A DNA stretch of 64,000 nucleotides. Origin: Candidatus Poribacteria bacterium. GTDB taxonomy: Bacteria > Poribacteria > WGA-4E > PCPOR2b. Below, in pieces: positions 3,386-27,705 of the stretch (positions within the stretch are counted from its first letter, which is position 1; the number at the start of each line of letters is the position of its first letter). The position numbers and the translations under genes are program-made. The notes under the pieces were generated by a model. That model was not told the origin of the DNA and did not search any database. It was given only the letters and a program-made list of their open reading frames with translations. The stretch is from positions 736,001-800,000 of the forward strand of contig OZ242351.1 in the NCBI GenBank assembly GCA_965208675.1, read 5' to 3'.

Positions 3386-5107
3386 TCATATTAACGACGA
3401 CTTTAATTCTTCAAAGTAGTCAGATGCAAGCCTGTTTTCTGCGGCATGGGTCATCTCGTAGCGCTGACACAACTTGATGTACCGTTCGATGAGTTGTGTG
3501 CGCTCCGCAGGCGGGATTTCATCACCAGTGACAATCATCGCCCTATACGCACAAATGGAAGCCTTCTCCACCCGTGCCCGAACTACATCATCATCCGCCA
3601 TGGCGAGTGCCCGTTCAAAGTATTCAAATATTTCTCGTGCGAACTCGGCATCCAACCCAACCTCGTGCGGTAATGGAAAGCAACCCGGATGGAGTCCGCG
3701 GGCATCGGCATTATCGTGGAGCCGATTAATATAGTCCAAAATGGGTTGTGCTGCGCCTCCGTAGTGCAACCTAACAAATTCGCCGCAGAGCGCTTCGTCA
3801 TCAAGCTCAGGGTCCCAAATCAGGCGGGCGATGATGTAGTTCCGCAGGTCGCATAGCTCGCCGGTCGTGCTGCTGCCGTTCGCCTGCATGAACACACCTT
3901 TGGCGTTATTGCGCAAAAAGTAACGGACATTGGGACTAATAACGCGCAGGTTCGGAAAGGGCAAATCATAGGCGTGGAAATTCGTGTTGTAGTTCCAAAT
4001 CCAGATGTCATTGCAGATCTTCCCCCACTCGTCCGCATCCCGGCAGAAAGCACGATTCTTTTCGCATTTTGAATCGTCGATTGGGTGCAACGTGCAACAT
4101 TCGATGCTGCACAATTGGATTTGGACATTGTGCCTCGGGCGGATGGTTATCGGGGCTTTCCGTGTGTACCAATACGCGAGCGTCCCAATTTTCACGTCTG
4201 GATGAGCCTTCTCGACTCTTTCAGCTACAGCATTAACAAATGTAAGCTGAGCACCCATTGGTGTGTCTTCACGCCCGTTGATTTCTTCACATGCATTACA
4301 ACGGCAGTATGCGTTGGTATCAGCTTGACTAACACTGATATTTCGCGCTAAGGGTTTGTCGTTCAGCCTTTTTATCGCGGCTGCTGCCGCGGTTTCAACA
4401 ACCCCCGGATTAGTGACACACAATTGCGGCCCTCCGCCACGCGTGCGAGTATCGCGTTCACCGTCCACTAACGCATAAAATTCTGGATTGGATTTCCCGT
4501 ATTCGTTGTATGGCACCAGCAGGTGGACCGAGTGGTTGATAAGCGATTGCCCCGTGTTTCCGCCAAGCCGGTCCTCGCCTGTGACGGTGTTTACCCGAAG
4601 CTTGGCGGCAAATTCAGGATGCTCCGCGTTCTCCCGGTAGAAACTCCACCGAAACGAAAATGGAGGGGTGTAGGTACGAGTGCCGCACGGAATCTTTAGC
4701 GCAGCTACATCAGGAACGTGTGTATGATCGTATGTAAGAAAACGCACGCCCAGGTAATCTTCGAGAAATTGGTATACGCCGTAAAGCGTACCGCGCGGAC
4801 GACCGCCGGCGACTACCAGACGATTCGTTTCGATGCTAATTCGCAGTTCTTCCTCCTGCATTGCAGAGGGGTTTAGATTCGCTGCGTCTGCGCCAATAAT
4901 GACATGACACGACGTCCCTTCAGCCGCTGAACGCAGCGGCAGTTGGACTCCGGTGCTTCGACTAAACCACCGCTGAAATTCTTCCGCCGCATATTTTTCG
5001 GAAGGGATTGCCTCATCAGCGATCACAATATCCCATGTGTGCATTTGGGAGCAATCTAGGTAATCCCCGCAGTCTACAGCTTTCGAGGTTGGCATTTTTC
5101 TCGCCAT
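3386..5107 (-). CDS. DUF4838 domain protein (glycoside-hydrolase-like)
   Basis: N-terminal motif GGRPRGTLYGVYQFLEDYLGVRF, then NPEFYAL, QLCVTNP, CRCNAC, TLAY and IARLIWDP. Confidence 0.85.
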   Translation of the reverse strand: MARKMPTSKAVDCGDYLDCSQMHTWDIVIADEAIPSEKYAAEEFQRWFSRSTGVQLPLRSAAEGTSCHVIIGADAANLNPSAMQEEELRISIETNRLVVAGGRPRGTLYGVYQFLEDYLGVRFLTYDHTHVPDVAALKIPCGTRTYTPPFSFRWSFYRENAEHPEFAAKLRVNTVTGEDRLGGNTGQSLINHSVHLLVPYNEYGKSNPEFYALVDGERDTRTRGGGPQLCVTNPGVVETAAAAAIKRLNDKPLARNISVSQADTNAYCRCNACEEINGREDTPMGAQLTFVNAVAERVEKAHPDVKIGTLAYWYTRKAPITIRPRHNVQIQLCSIECCTLHPIDDSKCEKNRAFCRDADEWGKICNDIWIWNYNTNFHAYDLPFPNLRVISPNVRYFLRNNAKGVFMQANGSSTTGELCDLRNYIIARLIWDPELDDEALCGEFVRLHYGGAAQPILDYINRLHDNADARGLHPGCFPLPHEVGLDAEFAREIFEYFERALAMADDDVVRARVEKASICAYRAMIVTGDEIPPAERTQLIERYIKLCQRYEMTHAAENRLASDYFEELKSSLI

Positions 5108-11590: not shown

Positions 11591-12334
11591 ATGATACCTA
11601 CACCTGTCCTAGTGTCTTGGTCTTCAGGTAAAGACTCCGCATGGGCGCTCTACACGCTGCGCAAGCAGCCAGAACGTTATGACGTACGCGGAATATTTAC
11701 TACGATAACTAAGACATTTGATAGGGTTTCAATTCATTCTACACCATCGTGGATTTTAGAGCAGCAAGCCCAGAGATTAGACTTGCCACTGTACGAGATT
11801 CCTATCCCCTATCCCTGCTCTGACTCACAGTATGAGTCTGCTATGAGAGCGTTCCTTAATCAAATTCAGGAACTGCCCGCGGATATCGCCGCGTCACATC
11901 TTGCATTTGGAGACCTCTTCCTTGAGGACATTCGGAAGTATCGTGAGGAAAAATTGGTCGGGACGGGCTTCACACCGATTTTCCCGGTATGGGGGCAAGA
12001 CACCACATTACTTGCTCGAAGGATGATTGGGTCGGGAATGCGGGCGATTGTTACTGCGCTTAATCCAACCATGATACCAGCAGAATTCGCCGGCAAATGG
12101 TTCGATTCCAACTTTTTAGCGGACTTACCGGAGGAAGTAGACCCGCTGGGCGAGAACGGAGAGTTTCATACGTGTGTCGTTGATGGTCCGATGTTCAGCA
12201 GCGCTATTGCAGCCAAACCCGGAAGAATTGTAGAGCGAAAAATTGCCGCCGCTTCAAATGAAGGTGATGACCTAGACAACGCCGAAAATGTCTCCCCGGC
12301 GTACGTTTACGCTGACGTAGTTCCATTGACCTGA
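11591..12334 (+). CDS. Adenine nucleotide alpha-hydrolase (Dph6/MJ0570-like PP-loop ATPase)
   Basis: PP-loop SWSSGKDS, FGDLFLEDIRKYRE and DPLGENGEFHT. Confidence 0.9.
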   Translation: MIPTPVLVSWSSGKDSAWALYTLRKQPERYDVRGIFTTITKTFDRVSIHSTPSWILEQQAQRLDLPLYEIPIPYPCSDSQYESAMRAFLNQIQELPADIAASHLAFGDLFLEDIRKYREEKLVGTGFTPIFPVWGQDTTLLARRMIGSGMRAIVTALNPTMIPAEFAGKWFDSNFLADLPEEVDPLGENGEFHTCVVDGPMFSSAIAAKPGRIVERKIAAASNEGDDLDNAENVSPAYVYADVVPLT

Positions 12335-12486
12335 GGCTTTCCTACAAACTGCCGAAACGGACAGCCTTAGCCCATCACTGATTTGTTGTTGTGTCCATCA
12401 ATTTCGAAGTATTGGCAGTTGAGCTAATAAAAACGGCTCCGTACTAGGTTGACTTGTCGTACTGGAGTTACTTTAGGTTATCTGCT

Positions 12487-13191
12487 TCACTCGAACTTGA
12501 TCTTACTTCTTTTGTAGGAACCATCACTCGCGATCTCTGTGATTATCTCTATTCCATTCTCTAAACCGCCAATTCTTGATACAACCCAGACAACGTCCTT
12601 CTCTTTAGTGTAACCCGTTTGATACTTATCAATCTTAAAAACATGGATGAAATCCTCTGCACATCCTCGTTCAGCGGGGAAAGGCACGTACTTGTGAGTC
12701 TGGTCTTTCATGTGTATGAACCCGTAACCATCTATCATTCCCTCGTCAGCCATTTTGATTACGACCCAGTTCTTCGAGAACAAGATGTGCCAACCGCTAT
12801 ACATTCCCATATCGTTGTCTATCACAAACTTTTTGTTTCCTTTCCTATCGTAAACCTCGATTTCCCTTCCATTAATCGGGGGCACATGGGCTCTGTCTGG
12901 ATAGTCCCCGTTTCTGTAAATGAGGAGATATTCAGGTTTGTACGCTCTTTGGTCATAGAACACCTCGTCCTTGATATACCCGCGTCTGTTTTCGATCGGT
13001 GTTTCGGGTCGCATATCTTCATATGGTGTTTCAGGTTTAAGCGATAGTGTTTTGACTACCTTGCCATTTTCCTTAAAAATTACTTGGTTGTCTTCTACCT
13101 CAAATGTAGATTTTTCTGTGTAACTGTGAACGCCTAGCGTAAAAATTGTGAACAATACAGCCGCTACAAGAGCCAGCGTAATTAGTCGCAT
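12487..13191 (-). CDS. Hypothetical exported protein (AT-rich, Lys-rich)
   Basis: AGGAGG RBS before ATG 13191 and an N-terminal hydrophobic signal. No family recognised. Confidence 0.7.
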   Translation of the reverse strand: MRLITLALVAAVLFTIFTLGVHSYTEKSTFEVEDNQVIFKENGKVVKTLSLKPETPYEDMRPETPIENRRGYIKDEVFYDQRAYKPEYLLIYRNGDYPDRAHVPPINGREIEVYDRKGNKKFVIDNDMGMYSGWHILFSKNWVVIKMADEGMIDGYGFIHMKDQTHKYVPFPAERGCAEDFIHVFKIDKYQTGYTKEKDVVWVVSRIGGLENGIEIITEIASDGSYKRSKIKFE

Positions 13192-13368
13192 GTGCAAACC
13201 TCTCCTCCTTCTAACCGGCAATTGGATGGTTAAAATTCTGCCTACTGGGTCGATTTTCTTTGCCTTGTCTTAACGCAATGGCGACATGCCAATTTTTGGT
13301 TGCTAAAGTTTTATTTTTTTGATTGGACTCTCGTTCACGGGACAGTGGGCAGGGAATGCTAGACAAAT

Positions 13369-15249
13369 TCAATTGCATGGGTTTATTACAGTCGACAATG
13401 TTTCAATGAGTTCATCAAGGTACACGTGCCGAAAGAACTCTGAAAGCCGCTTCTGCCTCGGTTTAATCGGGAGCAAAATAAAGTCTGCGCGGTAAACTTG
13501 GATGGATTCAAATACCATGCGGTAGGCGTGACTCGTGGCGTAGCCAACAACCAGCGCATAATTGTCGCCGTGTTTGTCGAGATAGGCGTTGAACCGATCG
13601 ACGCCCAACTGGATTTGCGAGATGTTTCTGGGGGACAACTGGAAATCGTAGCGCACGACGGGTTCTTCAGTTTCAAATTCTTCAGGTACTGGCCCGTAAA
13701 GCCCCGAAAGCGTAACCTTGTGAATCTCCTGTTGATTCTCTCCAAAAGCCGCTTTAAGCTTGGTATTGATGATAGCGTGCGTGCGGGACAGTGAATACGG
13801 CTTTTTCCCCGCACAGGGTATTGCCAATAGCACCTTCTTGTCCCTCGGCGGCACATAACTATCTGGAATGACAAAGGAATCTGGCGTGTAATCCAGCGAG
13901 AGGTTTGTCACTTCTTCTCGAGTGGCTGGGAATAGTTCCAGTTGATTCGGGTTTCTCCTACCCGCACGCCGGTTTACCGAGGCGGGGACTGCCGCAATCG
14001 TTCTTGCCATCCGGCTGGTAAATGATTCATCGTTAGCCATCAACCAGTCGATAGCCGCACGGATGCCGCGGCCAGATGAAGCATGCCGGCACAATTCTTC
14101 TAGCGCATCATCGGCTTCAATAGCTCGTTTCATGCGAGACAGCAGTTCTGCTTCCAACTCGAAATTATGTAAGGCAATTGCCGCGTAATATTCGCTCTTA
14201 TATTTTCCGGTCGAGGTCCGTTTATAGCTTGCCGCTTCCATTAAGGCGCCCTGCATCTCATCAAGCGAAACCTCGCTGCATATTCGGCAGGTACAAGTTA
14301 GCTCATCCAACTCCATTAGTTTTCGCTTTGCTCGGGTCAATGGATCCGCATAGTTGAGGCCGCGCGCCGCCTGAATATAACTAGTGCTGTCAAAGCTATC
14401 AATCCCCATGTATGCCAGGATAGGCGCGAGTTCGCCTGAGACCCCAAAAGCGTGGATGGGCGTATGTTGGCGTGCTGAATCCGGAATCGCCCTTTGAACC
14501 CCGCAGATTCGTTCTAGCACCTCCGAATCCTGCTTCCCGCGCAGCGGCACTAAGGAGCCAATCGCAAGCCCGAACGCGGGCAGCACGCCCATAAGACGGT
14601 CAAAAACCCTTTTGACATAATCTTCAATATCCGACTGCGACTGCCCATGGCAGCAAACGTATAAAAAGGGCGGTTGCGCTTTGGTTGAGAGCAAAGTTGC
14701 CACACGGCAGGCGTTCTCCAAACTGAGGCTCATCCGTTTTTCGGCTTCGGAGCGTTCTAGCCCCGGCGGTAACGGATAGTCTAAGGAAGCGAAGATTTCT
14801 CCGCCAACGTCCTCTTGGAGCGCAAGGATATCATCGGCTTCGGTTTCCTTTTCAATACCAAATTCCGTTAAGTCTAACCCCGTGCTGTAAAGCAACTTAA
14901 ATCCGCCGGAGTCAAGAAACAGCGGGGCATTGTAGGCACCGTTTACCTCTTGGTACCATTCACGAATGGTTTTGGTGCGCCACTTCGTTAAGATTTTCCC
15001 ATTGATCGGGAAGTCCAGAAAGTGGAGGACTTGTGATAACATCGGCGTGTCACGTTTCATAAAATCGCGGAGCAGATATTTCCAGAGACCTCCGCCACGT
15101 GGAGTTGAGCCGGTCATAAATGAAACCACCGGATACAAAATCGGTGTTGACAGTGGTGATAAAACTTCGCCATTCCGTCGCAATCGAAGTTCGCCAATTC
15201 TGCCGTTTTTTCTTTGAACACTCGTATGGTACGTTGGGATTGTGGTCAT
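13369..15249 (-). CDS. tRNA/DNA-guanine transglycosylase family protein fused to an ArcS-type (DUF5591-like) C-terminal domain
   Basis: TGT motifs LDSGGF, SLDYP, AIGSLVP, PIHAFG, GIDSFDS and the Zn site CTCRIC...HN. C-terminal PCAGKKPYSLSRTH and LYGPVPEEFE. Confidence 0.85.
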   Translation of the reverse strand: MTTIPTYHTSVQRKNGRIGELRLRRNGEVLSPLSTPILYPVVSFMTGSTPRGGGLWKYLLRDFMKRDTPMLSQVLHFLDFPINGKILTKWRTKTIREWYQEVNGAYNAPLFLDSGGFKLLYSTGLDLTEFGIEKETEADDILALQEDVGGEIFASLDYPLPPGLERSEAEKRMSLSLENACRVATLLSTKAQPPFLYVCCHGQSQSDIEDYVKRVFDRLMGVLPAFGLAIGSLVPLRGKQDSEVLERICGVQRAIPDSARQHTPIHAFGVSGELAPILAYMGIDSFDSTSYIQAARGLNYADPLTRAKRKLMELDELTCTCRICSEVSLDEMQGALMEAASYKRTSTGKYKSEYYAAIALHNFELEAELLSRMKRAIEADDALEELCRHASSGRGIRAAIDWLMANDESFTSRMARTIAAVPASVNRRAGRRNPNQLELFPATREEVTNLSLDYTPDSFVIPDSYVPPRDKKVLLAIPCAGKKPYSLSRTHAIINTKLKAAFGENQQEIHKVTLSGLYGPVPEEFETEEPVVRYDFQLSPRNISQIQLGVDRFNAYLDKHGDNYALVVGYATSHAYRMVFESIQVYRADFILLPIKPRQKRLSEFFRHVYLDELIETLSTVINPCN

Positions 15250-15417
15250 GGTACAACGTTTTTTCCGTCGGTACGATTATGATTTAGGTATGCAGTAATA
15301 TTGACTAGAATCCAATCCATAGTCATTTAGGTTCAAATTTACACAAGGAGGAATCGGCTGATTGATAATCGAGGCTAGGAAGCCTCTCCCACAAACTAAT
15401 GAGCAAATGTACAATTT

Positions 15418-16572
15418 TTAGTCACAATGGCTATAAATTTCGGATTTATAACTTCCCTGTGCCATTGGGTTTGTACGTTCAGACGAACGGCAAAATGAAC
15501 TTCTTGACAAATGTGGCCTTTTTGTAGAACGTCCATCAGATAGCTCACCAAGGCGTTTTCGCGCAATCCCGATATACGATTCTTCTTTCTCAATCATCAC
15601 CCATTTTCGGTTATTTTTTTCTGCGGCGACTCCGGTCGTCCCGGTACCGGAAAACGGATCTAGAATAAGGTCACTTTCATTGGTTCCCGCCAGGACAAGC
15701 CGTTCAACGATTTGAAGAGGCTTTTGTGAAGGGTGTTTTCCATATCTTCTTTCCGACGGTTTAGTTAGCGGTATTTCCCACATGTTCCGCATCTGCTTAT
15801 TATTATTCATTGATTTCATTGTATGATAGTTGAACGTCCAATTCTTCGCCTTCTTACTTTCATTGTTGACTGCCCATAAAATGAACTCTGTCGACTCCGT
15901 GAACATCCTACAGGTAATATTCGGCTGTGCATTCGGTTTATACCAGACGATTTGGGTAATAATCCGGCGGTCAAAAATATTTTGCATAATAAACCCAAGC
16001 GTGAAGATACTGTGAAACGAACCGAAAACAAAGATATTTCCATTTCGCTTGACGACTCGTAGAATTTCGGTGACCCAATCGAGCGTGAACTGAACATATT
16101 CGTCTTTTGAAAAAATGTCCCAACCCTCCTGCATGGTAACATGGGAACTAAACGCCCACCCCAACCCTTTCTTTTGCGACATGTTGAACGGCGGGTCGGC
16201 AATGCAACAATCGAAGACGCTGTCCGGCATTGAAGGCAGGATGCTCAGGCAATCGCCGTGTAAAATTTGCTTTACAGAAAGATTCTCGGGTGAGGTATCG
16301 GAAGGTAAGATTAAATCCGAATCTAATGGCGTGAATTGTAATTGATTTTCTGACAGGACTGCGGGTTCGGCGCTGTCGTCCGGATTGAGATCGAGATTCG
16401 GGCGAGTTGGATGATCCCCCGTCGCAATATACTGAATCAGTTGGGCTTTATTCAAATACGAATATCTTTTTAATCCACGTTTTTTCGCCTCCTTTCTCAA
16501 ATCTCTGTCTCGCATTCGGTCGAAATTCATTGGATAGCCCTTTCTCAATTCCATGTCAACTAGTCGCGCCAA
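15418..16572 (-). CDS. Beta-class N6/N4 DNA methyltransferase (DpnA/M2.DpnII-like) with an N-terminal Rho_N-like helical domain
   Basis: DPPF precedes LDPFSGTGTT. WYKPNAQPNITCRMFTESTEFILWA, KQMRNMW and HPSQKP resemble DpnA. The N-terminus reads DLRKEAKKRGLKRYSYLNKAQLI. Confidence 0.9.
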   Translation of the reverse strand: MARLVDMELRKGYPMNFDRMRDRDLRKEAKKRGLKRYSYLNKAQLIQYIATGDHPTRPNLDLNPDDSAEPAVLSENQLQFTPLDSDLILPSDTSPENLSVKQILHGDCLSILPSMPDSVFDCCIADPPFNMSQKKGLGWAFSSHVTMQEGWDIFSKDEYVQFTLDWVTEILRVVKRNGNIFVFGSFHSIFTLGFIMQNIFDRRIITQIVWYKPNAQPNITCRMFTESTEFILWAVNNESKKAKNWTFNYHTMKSMNNNKQMRNMWEIPLTKPSERRYGKHPSQKPLQIVERLVLAGTNESDLILDPFSGTGTTGVAAEKNNRKWVMIEKEESYIGIARKRLGELSDGRSTKRPHLSRSSFCRSSERTNPMAQGSYKSEIYSHCD

Positions 16573-16672
16573 ACGGACAAATCTGCCAAGTCAAATAACA
16601 TGTGGAAAATGTCATCTTCAGAGATGTGTGTAAAAATATGACGTACAACTGAATCATAGGAAACCTTGGTAC

Positions 16673-16791
16673 TATAGTAACTACAACTAAAAATTACACA
16701 TATTAATCCGAATAAAAGAGGTGTCAACCTCCCTAGCCCCCCTTGTCAGGGGGGTATTTAATGTGTGTAAATATAAATGTAAATGGCTATA
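16673..16791. mobile_element. MITE-like AT-rich element with TATAG...CTATA ends and an internal REP-like hairpin
   Basis: Imperfect terminal inverted repeats of about 34 bp (TATAG...TTACACATATTAA / TTAATGTGTGTAA...CTATA) enclose CCCCCCT-TGTC-AGGGGGG (16737-16754). Confidence 0.55.
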
Positions 16792-16890
16792 CTAGCTACG
16801 CGGTGTCAGCGAACTTGCGGGATGCGCACAAGTAAAGCCAACGGTCATGTTGCGGGGCGATAGGTGTCGTTAAGACGGCATGCTCGCCCT

Positions 16891-17700
16891 CTATCGTCTT
16901 ACTGACTGTGTCGGACTAAAGAACGGGGTTTTGAGCATGCCCCAGGCTGTCTGCCATTGAAATTCATCGAATTCAGATAGCCCTAGTTCAATGCTGCCCG
17001 GTTGCTCTTTCAATCGAACGGTTCTTGCGACTCGATCCCAGACTGAAAAGATGCTCGAATAGTTAGAGTCGGTTTCCGGCTGAAATCGGGAGTGATGCAC
17101 GCGGTGCATATTGGGAGAGACGATTAACGCTCGAAGGCAGCGATCGTATTTTTCAGGCAAGTTAACGTTGCTATGATGGAATTGAATCACCGGAAGCAGA
17201 ATCAGCTCGTACAGGATGACTTGCCACAAGTCTAGTCCTAACAAAGGGATTAGCCCAAGCCTCAAGATTGACGAGATAACCAGTTCGCCAGTGTGAAAAC
17301 GGGTGGCGGTCGTCACATCCATGTCGGGGTCGCTGTGATGCATACGATGGAAACGCCAAAGGAATGGAATAGCATGATTGGCGCGGTGCCACAAATACAT
17401 CCAGCCGTCAAACACTAGAATGGCAATTAACGTCTCTGCCCAGATAGGGAAATTCAAAGCGTGCAACAATCCGGCGCTGCGGTCATGGCTCCAGCCAGCA
17501 ACCGCGGCGGTCAAGCCGGCAAAGACCAGTCCGATAATCGCCGTGTTTATTATGGCAATCGACAGGTTGCGTCCAGCGTGCCGAACCCGATGTCGGCGTT
17601 CCCGGAACAGCGGCATCCAAGTTTCTACACACCAGAGAATCAGTAAAACAGCGATTCCCAATATCGTCTTGGTCCCACTAAGCGTCGCTGCGAAATCCAT
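16891..17700 (-). CDS. Sterol desaturase/fatty acid hydroxylase family protein
   Basis: His boxes HRANH, HRMHH, FHH and HRVHH, plus TDSNYS. Confidence 0.92.
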   Translation of the reverse strand: MDFAATLSGTKTILGIAVLLILWCVETWMPLFRERRHRVRHAGRNLSIAIINTAIIGLVFAGLTAAVAGWSHDRSAGLLHALNFPIWAETLIAILVFDGWMYLWHRANHAIPFLWRFHRMHHSDPDMDVTTATRFHTGELVISSILRLGLIPLLGLDLWQVILYELILLPVIQFHHSNVNLPEKYDRCLRALIVSPNMHRVHHSRFQPETDSNYSSIFSVWDRVARTVRLKEQPGSIELGLSEFDEFQWQTAWGMLKTPFFSPTQSVRR

Positions 17701-17811
17701 TTTCCTACCCTAAGGTTGAGCCCAAGCCTGTGTGTGAGTGCTCGACGTTCTATTCGGTCATGTGATTCGTACCGAAGAGTACACCGCAATGAGTTGCGCC
17801 ATAACCTATAA

Positions 17812-19038
17812 TCACTCTCCAATCACAACGCCGTATTCGCCCACGACGGCGCCTCTGTGCTTGTCTTGATAGTGCATGTGCCGCTCTCCTACGATCGACT
17901 GTGTGCTCTGGACTTCGATAGTACCGAGAACATTTCCCATGGCGTTGTCGTCAACATCCCAACAGCAGAAGGGTTTAATAGTATTGTGAAGCTGTCTGAG
18001 TACATTTCCATGCCTATCACGAATCACGATGTTGACCATGGCATCAGCCTCATCGACGTTCAAGAAGCGAAACCAGTCATGCGCCCCGGTGTAGACTTCG
18101 GGAAAAAAGAGGTGGCGTCCGACATGTCCGCCCTCAGCCGATGCACCCGGGAGATCGACAATACTTGTGCCGCTGTGCATGTGGCGTTCCGCTGCGATGG
18201 ACTGGTCGCTCCGAGCTTCGAGGGAAGATTTTATTTTGATTGCATCCATATCTGGCGTCCAGCATTCAAACGAACTAAGTGTCTGTTCCGCCGACCACAC
18301 GGGGTTACCGGTGCCATCCTCTCTTGCTATGAGTGTAACTTTTGCCTCTTCCTGACCAACATTCACAACAATTGCCCAATCGTGCCAAGCTGGTCCAACT
18401 TCAGGGAAGTACAGTGTGGTTGGACCGTCCGAAATGACCTGCCCAAATTGACCGACCGAAGTTTGCCCCCCCTGATAGTGTAGATGCCGTTCACCAACAA
18501 CGGGTTGTGTGCTCTGCACTTCGACGGTTCCGACCACATTTCCCATGGTTTCCTCCGCGAGATCCCAAGTACAAAGCGGTGGAATCTGACGATGATGCTG
18601 TCTAATGACGTCTCCATTTCTGTTGCGGATTACCAGGTTCACTAGCGCTTCTGCTTCCCCAACATTCAAAAATCGAAACCAGTCTCGTGCGCCGGACACC
18701 AGTTCGGGAAAAAAAAGTCGTTGACCGACCGTTTCATATTCTTCGGCTGCGCCCACAAAATCCATAACATTGGTGCCGCCGTGCATATGCCGCTCTGCAA
18801 CAATCGGCTGGTCAGCCGTGAATTGCATGGAGGAATTCTCTCCAATTGCTTCAACATTGGGTGTCCAGCATTCAAACGCGTCAATTTCCTTTTCCTCGGA
18901 CCATATGGGCTGGCCATTCGCTGGATTCCTTGCAATTGCCAATACTTTTGTAGGCTCATTCCCGACATTGACTACCTGCACCCAATCTTCCCACGCGGGC
19001 CCGACTTCAGGGAAATAGAGTGTCGTTGCTCCTGGCAT
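17812..19038 (-). CDS. Hypothetical protein built from four ~100-aa repeats (ABAB)
   Basis: AGGAG RBS. Each repeat reads L(Y/F)FPE...DW...NV...ERH(M/L)H. Confidence 0.85.
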   Translation of the reverse strand: MPGATTLYFPEVGPAWEDWVQVVNVGNEPTKVLAIARNPANGQPIWSEEKEIDAFECWTPNVEAIGENSSMQFTADQPIVAERHMHGGTNVMDFVGAAEEYETVGQRLFFPELVSGARDWFRFLNVGEAEALVNLVIRNRNGDVIRQHHRQIPPLCTWDLAEETMGNVVGTVEVQSTQPVVGERHLHYQGGQTSVGQFGQVISDGPTTLYFPEVGPAWHDWAIVVNVGQEEAKVTLIAREDGTGNPVWSAEQTLSSFECWTPDMDAIKIKSSLEARSDQSIAAERHMHSGTSIVDLPGASAEGGHVGRHLFFPEVYTGAHDWFRFLNVDEADAMVNIVIRDRHGNVLRQLHNTIKPFCCWDVDDNAMGNVLGTIEVQSTQSIVGERHMHYQDKHRGAVVGEYGVVIGE

Positions 19039-24663: not shown

Positions 24664-27489
24664 TTATCGCCGTTTCCAAATCGCCACAGTTCCAAGCTGA
24701 ATATCTTCGATATAATGTATTTGAAGATAAGCAGCGACTAATGGAAGCACGGCGGAAATCCTCTCTCGGTATATAACTATTTTTGGCTTCGACGCCTCCA
24801 AGTTCGCAATCACCTCTTTCTGCAGCGGCTCCGGTTTAGCATAGGCGATTTGAGGGAACCTTGTTGGATTAGGTCTGTTTGCAAGGAAATAGTTCATGCC
24901 TTGATTAGCGAAATCGAAGATCGTGTCAGAAGAATCCGTGTTTTCTTGGATATAATTGACCACCTGTTCAATCTGCGCCGCCTCGTTCACTGGCGTCAAA
25001 ACCCGCCCGGCCCGCTTTAAGCGTACCTCGGCATATCCCCCTGGGATTCTTCCATAATTCGTAAAATTAACAAGCATCTTATCAGCCTGCTTCAACGGCT
25101 TGGCGGCGAATACCCCATACAGGTCCGTTCTGACATACCAAAGCAAGCCCACCACAAAAATCAAAGAACAAATTAACAGCGGTAGATTAATTCGGGACAT
25201 TTGCACGCTGCGGACTGTAGGCGGCGACGCATCACGACATTCACCATGCTCCGCCGCCAATTTAGCATCGTTGAATGTATCGGCTCTCGCCAGTTCTTCA
25301 CTCGTTTTTAACTGGGGTGTATTCTCCGAAGATCCACGCGACCTAAACGCCAGGCACACTCCTTCAAAGAAAAAGAAGCAGATTAGCCAGATATAAGAAG
25401 AGCTAAATAAAACATGGTGCCAGTCCGAACGACCTAAAGCTGTTCTGAAATAAATGATACCCGCCAACAGAATTATCAGCAACTTCCAATCCTCCACTTT
25501 CCATTGATTGGCAACCGCGCGAAACATCAGAAAGGTTAAAGTCATCAAGTAAACGAGGATGGGGAAATACCACATAAATGTCTTGTTTAAAATAAAGTCC
25601 GAGAATGTGACGAGAGAGGTAATCTTTGATAGTTCTGCCAACAGCGGGATGAAGGGCGTTGCCCAAATTTCCGTGTGATACGTGAATTGTGTCCATGAGC
25701 TTTCAACCGCATCATCTATCGCACCGAGGACGCCAAAAAAGATAAGGAAAGGGGCAAATCCTATTATGACCCCTAACTTATACGTTAGAAGCGGCGACAG
25801 ACACTTGCCCAATGCGCCATCCCTCACCTGCTGTATTAGGTCTTTTGAAGAACTAGGATTCGCCGCGGCTGCATCATTTTTAACCGATCTGCGAAAGATG
25901 GAGGCGAAACCGAATACAAATAAGAACAAGCTAGAGGCTGCCCAAGTATACAATCCGGTGTCAAGACTGTAAAACACTGCCAATGTTGTACAAACTCCTG
26001 CCACTGCGAGAAGCGATTTTCCATGTCCGGGACCTCTTTGAGTCCATTTGCATAACAACATCAGCGTAAGAAACCCCAGTATATGCCGATCTGTCACCGG
26101 AAGGTACGCTCGCGGTGCTGCCAATCCAAACGTCAGCAAAATTAAAGCCAAAGAAACAAAGAGAGCCGTAGCTCTTCTTCGAAAACACTGCAACGCGAGA
26201 AGATAAAAACAGACATATCCCAGCGGATACACAATATGGTGCAGTTTTCTATCCGCCTCTAGCGTTTCTCCAAAAAGTTTCATGGCGAGCCAGGGTTTGT
26301 ATGCGTTTTGAATAAGGCCGTGCTGTAGGTAGACATCTCGATAGGGAATGCCCCCTCGCAGCAGTTCGTTTACTACGGCAGCACGTTCGCCTTCGTGATA
26401 AAGGTCAATACCGCCCACGGCGCTCGCACCGGAATAAGCATGGCTAAGACTGGCATTGCTATTATACATAAAGGCGTAGATGAGAGCGGACAACATGATA
26501 ATGTTTAGGATAGACACTCTCCGCTGCAAAGCCGTGCGGTAAGGCCGGATGGCGGGGATTTGCTGCTTAACAATTCTTCGGGACGAACGGAGGTTTAGCA
26601 AGGTAGAAATTTTCAAAGCGGCAATTGCTATGACAGTGACAATTGCCAAGATTGCCGCCGCATGCTTCACCCTGAAAAACACCGTGAGCAACAACAGCAG
26701 GATTGTCGGGAAATAAGTCACAGAATCATTTCGTACTATATCAGCGAAACTATACGGTGTTAATTTTCTCAGCAGTATCGAATATCCAACCCAGAATCCC
26801 CAGGTTCCCAGTATAATAACAAAGAGCATTTGCCAACACGCTATTGCTGCGACCTCTTTCGGACTTCCAATAATCAGAAGACAAACAGTCAGGCAAACGC
26901 CGCAGGCAATCGGTATTCCATGGAATGGCATTGTCTCCCTTGCCCAAAGAATTTCTCCAATTTTTGGCTCTCCTTCCAAGCGCGTCTCGTCCTCGCGTGT
27001 TTCCAGTTTTTCACGCCAACGCCTTTTCGAGATCATCAGGTGGAATGAAAAAAACAACACTTGGGCAATTATGAACAGAATCGCCGGCATCCCGAATTCT
27101 CCAGCAAATCTGCCAGGAAGGTGTACTCGCTCCAACACTAACAGGAGAAGTAGATATGTGAGCGCATTTTGCCGCAAGATGCGCTCTTTGGCGTTGTTAG
27201 TCAATGTAGCGCAAAGCGCCGAAAACGTCACCCATAACCCGCAACTCATCAGGGTATAAACCGGCACAAAGGCGAGTGCAGCTAAATAATTTACAATCTC
27301 TTGACGCTCGGCAACAGTACGTTTGCCAAGTTGATCTGACCCAAATTCAGTAAAAAAATGGAGGTGTTCCTTGAAATAAAAACCCAATGCCAGTGCGAAA
27401 ACAAAGCTGCTTCCGGAAACTATCACCGCAAAGGCTTGGTTTCTATGTTGGCGTGCGAGGTTGAAGGTTTCGCGAATAGCGTCACGCAT
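24664..27489 (-). CDS. Large polytopic membrane protein, probable GT-C fold glycosyltransferase
   Basis: Many TM segments. The loop DLYHEGE...GGIPYRDVYLQHG is like ArnT/PMT-type enzymes, and there is a C-terminal soluble domain (YFLANRPNPTRF). The start is uncertain (27489-27666). Confidence 0.65.
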   Translation of the reverse strand: MRDAIRETFNLARQHRNQAFAVIVSGSSFVFALALGFYFKEHLHFFTEFGSDQLGKRTVAERQEIVNYLAALAFVPVYTLMSCGLWVTFSALCATLTNNAKERILRQNALTYLLLLLVLERVHLPGRFAGEFGMPAILFIIAQVLFFSFHLMISKRRWREKLETREDETRLEGEPKIGEILWARETMPFHGIPIACGVCLTVCLLIIGSPKEVAAIACWQMLFVIILGTWGFWVGYSILLRKLTPYSFADIVRNDSVTYFPTILLLLLTVFFRVKHAAAILAIVTVIAIAALKISTLLNLRSSRRIVKQQIPAIRPYRTALQRRVSILNIIMLSALIYAFMYNSNASLSHAYSGASAVGGIDLYHEGERAAVVNELLRGGIPYRDVYLQHGLIQNAYKPWLAMKLFGETLEADRKLHHIVYPLGYVCFYLLALQCFRRRATALFVSLALILLTFGLAAPRAYLPVTDRHILGFLTLMLLCKWTQRGPGHGKSLLAVAGVCTTLAVFYSLDTGLYTWAASSLFLFVFGFASIFRRSVKNDAAAANPSSSKDLIQQVRDGALGKCLSPLLTYKLGVIIGFAPFLIFFGVLGAIDDAVESSWTQFTYHTEIWATPFIPLLAELSKITSLVTFSDFILNKTFMWYFPILVYLMTLTFLMFRAVANQWKVEDWKLLIILLAGIIYFRTALGRSDWHHVLFSSSYIWLICFFFFEGVCLAFRSRGSSENTPQLKTSEELARADTFNDAKLAAEHGECRDASPPTVRSVQMSRINLPLLICSLIFVVGLLWYVRTDLYGVFAAKPLKQADKMLVNFTNYGRIPGGYAEVRLKRAGRVLTPVNEAAQIEQVVNYIQENTDSSDTIFDFANQGMNYFLANRPNPTRFPQIAYAKPEPLQKEVIANLEASKPKIVIYRERISAVLPLVAAYLQIHYIEDIQLGTVAIWKRR

Positions 27490-27705
27490 AGCAAGATGCT
27501 CCAATCGAAGAAAGCCCCAGCTCGTCCTGATGGACGCCCACATATAATCTGTATGTAGAGTCATGCCTCCTGACGGTTCAGAAAGGACTATCGTGGTTTC
27601 ATTTGGCGAGTCAAAGGGAATAAGACGCGGATGCAGTGCTTTTTGATGTCGATGGCACCCGCACAAAGGCGGGGTGAAGGCTGGGTGCCAAATTCTACGA
27701 ACCGT

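Follow-up and report, generated by a model that had tools for sequence, protein, structure and literature searches.

Here we describe a pair of genes in a 64,000-nt stretch of DNA from a Candidatus Poribacteria bacterium (contig OZ242351.1; the whole stretch is called the window below), a sponge symbiont, whose genome is a single contig of 4.89 Mb. Our results support a model in which two neighboring DNA-modification genes are independent of each other: the methylase of a restriction-modification (R-M) system and a solitary protein of the arcTGT/ArcS lineage. We put at about 0.55 the probability that the latter, a predicted protein of 626 aa, inserts 7-cyano-7-deazaguanine (preQ0) into DNA and converts the base in place to an amidine-type base. 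A preliminary description of the locus had proposed that a single polypeptide makes a deazaguanine in DNA and that the adjoining methyltransferase works with it. The first half of this proposal is plausible from the domains of the protein and from the neighbors of its relatives across phyla, whereas the second half, the methyltransferase as a working partner, did not hold.

The gene of the 626-aa protein (13369–15249, minus strand), identified from the list of open reading frames (ORFs), Pfam and NCBIfam, joins a tRNA-guanine transglycosylase (TGT) domain to DUF5591, the C1 domain of ArcS. The transglycosylase domain, a TIM barrel with a Zn site, spans residues 32–392 (14074–15156, minus strand), as delimited by the envelope of a family hidden Markov model (HMM) and by alignment with P. 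horikoshii ArcTGT (1iq8); within it, Pfam TGT (PF01702) matches residues 106–386 at 53.1 bits, above its cut-off of 26.3. The DUF5591 or ArcS C1 catalytic domain covers residues 463–583 (13501–13863, minus strand), with 51.6 bits to PF17884 (cut-off 26), a stretch of the NCBIfam ArcS model and a match of PDB entry 2q07 at E = 7e-5. Neither a PUA domain nor any further Pfam family was found at E ≤ 0.01, there is no C2 domain, and the protein ends 43 residues after the DUF5591 match; a PUA domain is likewise missing from all of 13 relatives that are longer or of variant form (0/13).

Both active sites are intact at the level of sequence motifs. The transglycosylase residues, Zn site and H-x-F-G motif, the ArcS signature and the absence of a PUA domain, all listed in the preliminary description, were borne out, and each motif could be placed exactly. 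The alignment with 1iq8 pairs DS, LD-P, HxFG, FDS and CxCxxC...H of the archaeal enzyme with DSGGF (residues 113–117), SLD (155–157; LDYP, 156–159), HAFG (266–269), GIDSFDS (282–288) and CTCRIC (319–324) plus ALHN (359–362) of the window protein, giving D287 as the nucleophile by homology and C319/C321/C324/H361 as the Zn site; a further motif, HG, occupies residues 201–202. In the C-terminal domain, PCAGKKPYSLSRTH (residues 478–491; 13777–13818) fits the ArcS motif PC-X3-KPY-X2-S-X2-H, and SGLYGPVP is encoded at 13684–13707. When 26 family members are aligned, 26 of 26 share D113, S114, G116, D157, H266, G269, D287, C321, C324, H361, P484 and Y485, and at least 90% of these sequences retain K483 and S488.

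Profile comparisons place the protein in a distinct family, separate from arcTGT, ArcS, DpdA and bacterial Tgt. The nearest NCBIfam model is TgtA (TIGR00432), at 86.1 bits against an equivalog cut-off of 350, and ArcS (NF040592) scores 85.6 bits against a cut-off of 440. Scores are lower still for DpdA (NF041059, 24.9 bits, cut-off 200; PADLOC DpdA, 24.7 bits) and for bacterial Tgt (20.6 bits), and Pfam DpdA (PF23859) has no match at E ≤ 0.01. An HMM of the transglycosylase domain gives 319–464 bits for family members, 228–236 bits for a haloarchaeal stand-alone paralogue of about 415 aa (TGT2), 100 bits for the TGT of a Nostoc plasmid dpd cluster and 27 for the annotated Nostoc plasmid DpdA, 82–89 bits for ArcTGT, 17–31 bits for the N-domain of canonical ArcS (second half only), 25 bits for the Tgt of the window's own genome and 12–16 bits for viral DpdA-like proteins. 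In a maximum-likelihood tree, built by a quick search with one DpdA included and with long branches, the 27 family rows are monophyletic (Shimodaira-Hasegawa-like approximate likelihood-ratio support 95) and stand next to TGT2, apart from ArcTGT and ArcS; the branching with tRNA-acting TGTs against which the preliminary description had cautioned was not seen.

The transglycosylase residues align with those of ArcTGT, the C1 motif is shared with ArcS and the domain order, catalytic then C1, is that of both. The differences are that both active sites lie here on one polypeptide, that no C2 or PUA domain follows, that scores fall far short of the equivalog cut-offs, that residue 201 is His instead of Gln, and that bacteria and plasmids carry members of this family, in the setting of defence genes. 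Canonical haloarchaeal ArcS matches the second half of the TGT model only, and the window protein can be aligned with it in two parts only, the C1 domain (117 aa, 26% identity) and the distal third of the barrel; ArcS has lost the part of the barrel that holds the DSGG and LDYP residues, a part that the family of the window protein has kept. A review treats ArcS as a relative of ArcTGT whose C1 domain gained a motif-bearing insertion (PMC5699537), and because of that account an ArcS/ArcTGT-like enzyme that kept its transglycosylase site fits better than a fusion of two genes. The family also offers a living intermediate for the origin of ArcS from ArcTGT.

Relatives of the 626-aa protein number 440 at E ≤ 0.001 in a collection clustered at 90% identity, and 102 cluster representatives at 50% identity reach E ≤ 1e-30, many of them full length. 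Outside Poribacteria the family is found in cyanobacteria, Chloroflexota, one member of Bacillota and haloarchaea, partly on megaplasmids. No relative was found among 50,697 phage records, and PHROG gave no match; IMG/VR yielded only five weak matches, confined to the TGT part. Public annotation calls family members "tRNA-guanine transglycosylase" or "7-cyano-7-deazaguanine tRNA-ribosyltransferase". In the literature, with supplements outside the coverage, we found no description of a cellular TGT–DUF5591 protein, and for DUF5591/PF17884 only the phage ArcS2. Some family genes are broken: in one the TGT part and a DUF5591 part of 281 aa form separate ORFs (L070), a second copy in genome G061 (C1:1273191–1275078) has a TAG stop, and a copy in G114 (C1:3513611–3515502) lies in two frames.

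In the mechanism that we propose, D287 would serve as the nucleophile and a guanine in DNA would be exchanged for preQ0, supplied by the cell's QueC/D/E pathway; at the ArcS-type C1 domain the nitrile of this new base would then be joined to an amine, which could be ammonia or, as with T. kodakarensis ArcS, lysine, and the product would be an amidine like 2′-deoxyarchaeosine (dG+) or a preQ0-lysine adduct. Each step has a described counterpart. TGT enzymes swap guanine for a 7-deazaguanine via a covalent Asp intermediate (bioRxiv 10.1101/2025.04.06.647259), T. kodakarensis ArcS puts lysine onto preQ0 with a preQ0 nucleotide as minimal substrate (PMC11298593), and a phage ArcS2 consisting of DUF5591 only, together with DpdA2, gave dG+ in plasmid DNA in E. 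coli (PMC10516641). This last pair, from Vibrio phage nt-1, is the closest parallel, since it too consists of a transglycosylase and a PUA-less DUF5591 homologue of ArcS (PMC10516641), and its two chemistries are those that we propose for the window protein. It differs in that the phage uses two proteins where the cellular protein is one chain, and in that the TGT domain of the window protein is not of the DpdA type. We advance more tentatively, as a possibility with rather less behind it than the mechanism itself, that the protein is a self-sufficient DNA hypermodification enzyme, an ArcTGT–ArcS intermediate that has both sites and works on chromosomal DNA with no DpdB-type ATPase, and that cells, and not phages alone, would have a dG+-like DNA base or a preQ0-lysine base of a kind not seen before.

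A role in DNA 7-deazaguanine modification is plausible because of the domain content, the lack of a PUA domain, and the precursor-supply, Dpd-like and defence genes that adjoin family members across phyla. To survey these neighbors we scanned one genome per species, giving 80 loci that represent the best 80 of the 102 relatives; ORFs were called in 78 of the 80, clustered and scanned with profiles. Within four genes of the family gene, 23 of 25 loci outside Poribacteria carry genes for preQ0 supply, Dpd-like genes or other defence genes, the two others being L065 and L083, and a preQ0 synthesis or transport gene is present in 8 of the 25. The types encountered include QueC, QueE, PTPS, YhhQ/Vut_1, a DpdJ-like helicase, a DpdK-like PLD protein, Pfam DpdA, the DpdC-like DUF6884, and GmrSD_N with HEPN. 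Radical-SAM genes near family members comprise only QueE-like genes and one KamA-family gene four genes off, in a scan that did not include a model of RaSEA, the radical-SAM partner of ArcS that turns preQ0-Lys into G+.

The composition of these neighborhoods varies by phylum. In eight of nine cyanobacterial loci (L057–L061, L064, L068, L069), a GmrSD_N/DUF262 gene and a RiboL-PSP HEPN gene lie directly 3′ of the family gene, and the DUF262 protein matches PADLOC NsnA (205 bits) and PD-T4-2_A. Five loci, from Chloroflexota and one cyanobacterium, encode a DpdJ-like helicase of 1285–1388 aa (NCBIfam DpdJ, 172 bits; PADLOC, 190.7 bits), accompanied by a DpdK-like PLD protein in three, YhhQ/Vut_1 in three and a nucleoside deoxyribosyltransferase in two. 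NurA and HerA adjoin the family gene in one Anaerolineae locus, and in a Symbiobacteriaceae locus a second copy of the family gene accompanies QueC, Vut_1 and an AAA protein. At L057, a tRNA gene (4196–4282) and an insertion-sequence fragment border the family-gene block, like an integrated island.

In haloarchaea, six of ten loci share a trio of DUF6884, TGT2 and HATPase_c_3, and a seventh lacks TGT2 but has the other two; several of these loci also carry QueC, QueE-like and PTPS genes. One haloarchaeal locus encodes a Pfam DpdA protein (77.5 bits), an HNH protein and a 1454-aa helicase, another a DEAD/MZB helicase of 1576 aa, and a Haladaptatus megaplasmid (L121) carries two family genes beside a TGT, DUF6884, a PLD protein and a DEAD/DEAH helicase. 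The set of TGT–DUF5591 protein, DUF6884, TGT of about 415 aa and HATPase_c_3 was noted at L076, L078, L080, L081, L084, L085 and L121, and has the look of a Dpd-like system of archaea, so far undescribed, that includes a pair of transglycosylase paralogues. DUF6884 is described as distantly related to YaaA, PF03883 (PMC11701544), the family of DpdC is given as DUF328/PF03883 (PMC12839542), and DUF6884 itself matches PADLOC DpdC weakly (E = 1e-4).

In cyanobacteria, Chloroflexota and haloarchaea, the family protein may serve as the modification arm of new Dpd-like systems. These resemble the bacterial Dpd system (DpdA/B/C plus DpdD–K) in that family relatives adjoin DpdJ-like, DpdK-like, Pfam DpdA, DUF6884, YhhQ and QueC/E genes, but the second enzyme is of the ArcS type and not of the DpdC type. 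In Poribacteria the mark may instead be a stand-alone protective or epigenetic modification, because no cognate restriction module is attached. Of the 49 ORFs of the window, the 27 at 456–34144 were scanned (the 22 beyond 34 kb lie outside the scan), and they include neither que genes nor dpdB–K, in agreement with the preliminary description; no search was aimed at FolE. The window's genome does have QueC, QueE-like and PTPS genes, unlinked to the transglycosylase locus, although the co-occurrence with QueC is uninformative, because 148 of 151 Poribacteria genomes have that gene. A tblastn search of the genome with the DpdJ-like, DpdK-like, DUF6884, HATPase and TGT2 proteins of relatives found no such gene.

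Several points weigh against this model. Position 201 is His in the family and in its stand-alone sister TGT2, whereas ArcTGT, Tgt and DpdA conserve a Gln that we take to be a base-contacting residue; the inserted base may therefore not be preQ0. The closest characterised relatives, ArcTGT and ArcS, act on tRNA. At most Poribacteria loci the family gene has ordinary metabolic neighbors and lacks a restriction partner, and in this phylum no DpdB-type ATPase partner stands beside the transglycosylase, although DpdA is described as acting on DNA only together with the ATPase DpdB (PMC10164549). The DNA-modifying activity is itself proposed from sequence. As for the methylase, 15 Poribacteria genomes have both genes and 14 of these have them next to each other, and GATC, our best guess for the methylase site, is deduced from the family of the partner endonuclease and from oligonucleotide depletion.

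A rival possibility is that the protein modifies RNA, most likely tRNA, and belongs to an additional bacterial and archaeal pathway of the archaeosine type, with preQ0 inserted and matured by a single enzyme and with no DNA or defence role. The profile scores of 86 bits to TgtA and 85.6 bits to ArcS, whose members are tRNA enzymes, fit such a role, and ArcS is described as independent of the tRNA fold (PMC11298593). In Poribacteria, moreover, inheritance accounts for most copies of the gene, its chromosomal surroundings being conserved and its neighbors metabolic, and in five loci (L022, L023, L025, L026, L032) just 1 nt separates the end of a PTPS/QueD-like gene of 126–136 aa from the family gene; the equivalent single-copy PTPS gene of the window's genome lies at C1:2898725–2899033, and the QueD-linked family copies show no synteny with the window's genome. 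Against a tRNA target stands the patchy distribution: each of the two proteins was searched against 151 Poribacteria genomes, and the transglycosylase was found in 47 of them (21 of 25 in family f1, 8 of 10 in family f2, 17 of 100 in family f3), with none in the 38 genomes of genus g6, while other copies are plasmid-borne. All five haloarchaea that were searched have a canonical ArcTGT beside the family member and four have a canonical ArcS, so the family does not replace these enzymes; the remaining genome (G151) gave ArcTGT matches divided between two frames and no match to ArcS. In the same genomes canonical ArcS scores about 210 bits to DUF5591, compared with 56–81 bits for family members. 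The missing PUA and C2 domains and the 23 of 25 non-Poribacteria loci with preQ0-supply, Dpd-like or defence neighbors also argue against tRNA, as does one relative (P0192, 600 aa) in which a family-type TGT (39% identity, residues 19–302) is joined to Schlafen AlbA_2 and not to DUF5591. We therefore regard an RNA target as unlikely.

Two other features of the Poribacteria loci deserve mention. A PLD–SNF2 helicase gene lies upstream of the family gene in three loci. A GNAT acetyltransferase gene of 164 aa was also observed directly 3′ of the family gene at L013, L014, L015, L017, L018, L020 and L063; GNAT–TGT pairs have been described in BREX-related systems (PMC12839542).

The second gene of the pair encodes an orphan beta-class N6_N4 DNA methyltransferase (15418–16530, minus strand; 370 aa from ATG), assigned from Pfam, motifs and orthologues. 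The preliminary description had the two genes co-oriented and 168 nt apart, at 13369–15249 and 15418–16572, both on the minus strand, and those positions were recovered. The longest methylase ORF does extend to 16572, where it begins with TTG, but 14 of 14 orthologues start at the ATG equivalent to 16530, which is almost certainly the true start. The ORF has no internal stop, matches Pfam N6_N4_Mtase at E = 1e-49 and contains motif IV (DPPF, 16186–16197) and motif I (FSGTGTTG, 15631–15654). It scores 251 bits to PADLOC MTase_II, and among NCBIfam models a CcrM-like one fits best, although its 222 bits fall far short of the cut-off of 830. Like type II R-M methylases it has DPPF followed by FxGxG, matches MTase_II and has orthologues that precede a Sau3AI/MutH-like endonuclease; unlike them it has no endonuclease, and it carries an extra, conserved N-terminal Rho_N/SAP-like motif (16426–16500) and a 35-aa C-terminal tail shared with L054 only.

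Orthologues of the methylase (65–83% identity) are present in 54 of the 151 Poribacteria genomes, including 29 of the 38 in genus g6, and several carry in-frame stops. Both genes occur in 15 genomes, the methylase only in 39, the transglycosylase only in 32 and neither in 65. We took 14 methylase loci for study, 13 from transglycosylase-free genomes and one from G032; the next gene downstream encodes a full-length MutH-like endonuclease in eight, there is an interrupted copy or remnant in two and none in four, and no locus has a TGT match (0/14). Because the methylase so often occurs without the transglycosylase and is followed by a MutH-like endonuclease, the two constitute an autonomous type II R-M system of a classical kind that is common in Poribacteria; some genomes have a DUF6996/6997 endonuclease as the partner instead. 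The MutH-like endonuclease scores 68.6 bits to NCBIfam Sau3AI (E = 5e-19; far below the cut-off of 300) and also matches PADLOC REase_II.

Upstream of the transglycosylase, the methylase was found in only 14 of the 80 relative loci, all from close Poribacteria, and the content of the gap between the genes varies. It holds a MutH/Sau3AI-like protein of 203–211 aa in six of the 14 loci, a DUF6996/6997 protein on the other strand in two (PADLOC REase_II, 100.6 bits), a degraded DUF6996/6997 copy in one, a short unassigned ORF in two and nothing in three, as in the window, where the 168-nt spacer (15250–15417, no strand) is empty and relatives carry the type II endonuclease gene in this slot. A tblastn search of window positions 12001–18000, including the spacer and the methylase tail, found no remnant of a MutH/Sau3AI-like or DUF6996/6997 endonuclease, in line with the preliminary description, which saw no recognisable endonuclease at the locus; these two families, the only ones searched, have no copy elsewhere in the genome either. 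The methylase is an orphan in this sense, because the endonuclease is gone from locus and genome, and the pattern points to a clean loss that left the methylase intact. From the adjacency in 14 of 15 genomes we infer that a single ancestral insertion brought the R-M system to its place upstream of the transglycosylase, in one lineage, where it has since decayed repeatedly.

The distribution also bears on the proposal that the methylase and the TGT–ArcS protein form one compact, cooperating modification or defence system. The shared strand, the short spacer with no terminator-like site, the adjacency just discussed and the parallel identities of the two genes to the window copies (for example, 79% and 80%) are what such a system would predict. 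The occurrence of the two genes is not: 39 genomes have the methylase without a TGT and with its own endonuclease, 32 genomes and every non-Poribacteria locus have the TGT without the methylase, and a type II endonuclease gene usually separates the two genes where both occur. Six loci with the flanks of the window have no methylase, among them L006, the closest relative, whose transglycosylase is 92% identical. Recurrence of the pair, which the preliminary description had suggested looking for, was seen in the 14 close Poribacteria loci and at no locus outside the phylum. A two-gene system is largely refuted by this distribution, and we consider cooperation of the two proteins very improbable.

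The methylase probably makes N6-methyladenine. In the window's genome GATC is strongly depleted, with an observed/expected ratio of 0.48 (Markov), the second lowest of the palindromic 4-mers after GGCC (0.36), whereas GANTC (1.15, base composition) is not depleted; the depletion of GATC fits a GATC-specific system. A tblastn search with the window methylase gave nine further N6_N4-type matches across the genome, and together with the depletion of GGCC and GATC these suggest a heavy R-M load.

A last alternative, which we think scarcely probable, is that the 626-aa protein does not modify the cell's own nucleic acid at all but removes bases from foreign DNA or handles a deazaguanine-tagged protein like Cap10: base-excision restriction enzymes exist (PMC10273834) and a TGT fold is adapted to protein-linked 7-deazaguanine in type IV cyclic oligonucleotide-based antiphage signaling systems (bioRxiv 10.1101/2025.04.06.647259), but the family keeps the Zn site, which the preprint describes Cap10 as lacking, and all residues of nucleic-acid-type TGTs, no CD-NTase (cGAS/DncV-like nucleotidyltransferase) gene and no gene like that of Cap9, the QueC-like protein encoded with Cap10, was seen among scanned neighbors and no nucleotidyltransferase or QueC-like neighbor among the 27 scanned window ORFs, the linked ArcS-type domain and preQ0-supply genes indicate that a base is made and not only removed, and the excision at unmethylated sites raised in the preliminary description found no support.

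If the model of a DNA-acting TGT–DUF5591 enzyme is correct, this would be the first cellular enzyme to combine base exchange and ArcS-type maturation in one chain, dG+-type DNA chemistry would reach beyond phages to bacterial and archaeal chromosomes and plasmids, and a compact one-gene tool would be available with which DNA could be given a bulky 7-deazaguanine mark. The question is testable on existing data, with closed long-read Poribacteria genomes that have the gene (47 of 151) set against those without it as natural knock-outs. The methylase is ordinary, and its case is a caution: the two genes looked like one system because they adjoin within a single lineage, but their wider distribution gives that reading no support.

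Regulatory features near the pair are few. A promoter-like site upstream of the methylase (16700–16727, minus strand; TTGACA, 16-nt spacer, TAATAT; 10/12 in a consensus scan) could drive both genes, but the scan returned nine such sites against 5.6 expected, which makes it weak evidence for this one. The minus strand of the spacer has neither a terminator-like nor a promoter-like site. Rfam found neither a preQ1 riboswitch nor any other family in window positions 13000–17000 at E ≤ 1, and a search of the complete window and of four related loci at gathering scores turned up nothing but a tRNA and an rRNA end, both at L057.

The genes around the pair are housekeeping genes: ArgRS, RsfS, NadD-like, EngA and transporters. 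Two genes downstream of the transglycosylase, and convergent with it, is a gene for a Dph6/PAB0415-like PP-loop ATP pyrophosphatase (11591–12334, plus strand), of the same superfamily as QueC. It adjoins the transglycosylase gene also in L006, and it is probably a flanking gene and not a partner, because it was seen only in this genus. Farther off, a 1000-aa ORF (24664–27666, minus strand) has no Pfam match at E ≤ 1e-5. A 408-aa ORF at 17812–19038 (minus strand), also without a Pfam match, consists of an internal tandem duplication with a unit of about 200 aa, in which the pattern TLYFPEVGPAW...VVNVG...ERHMH occurs twice; it adjoins a fatty-acid hydroxylase gene, as it does in L006, L007 and L054.

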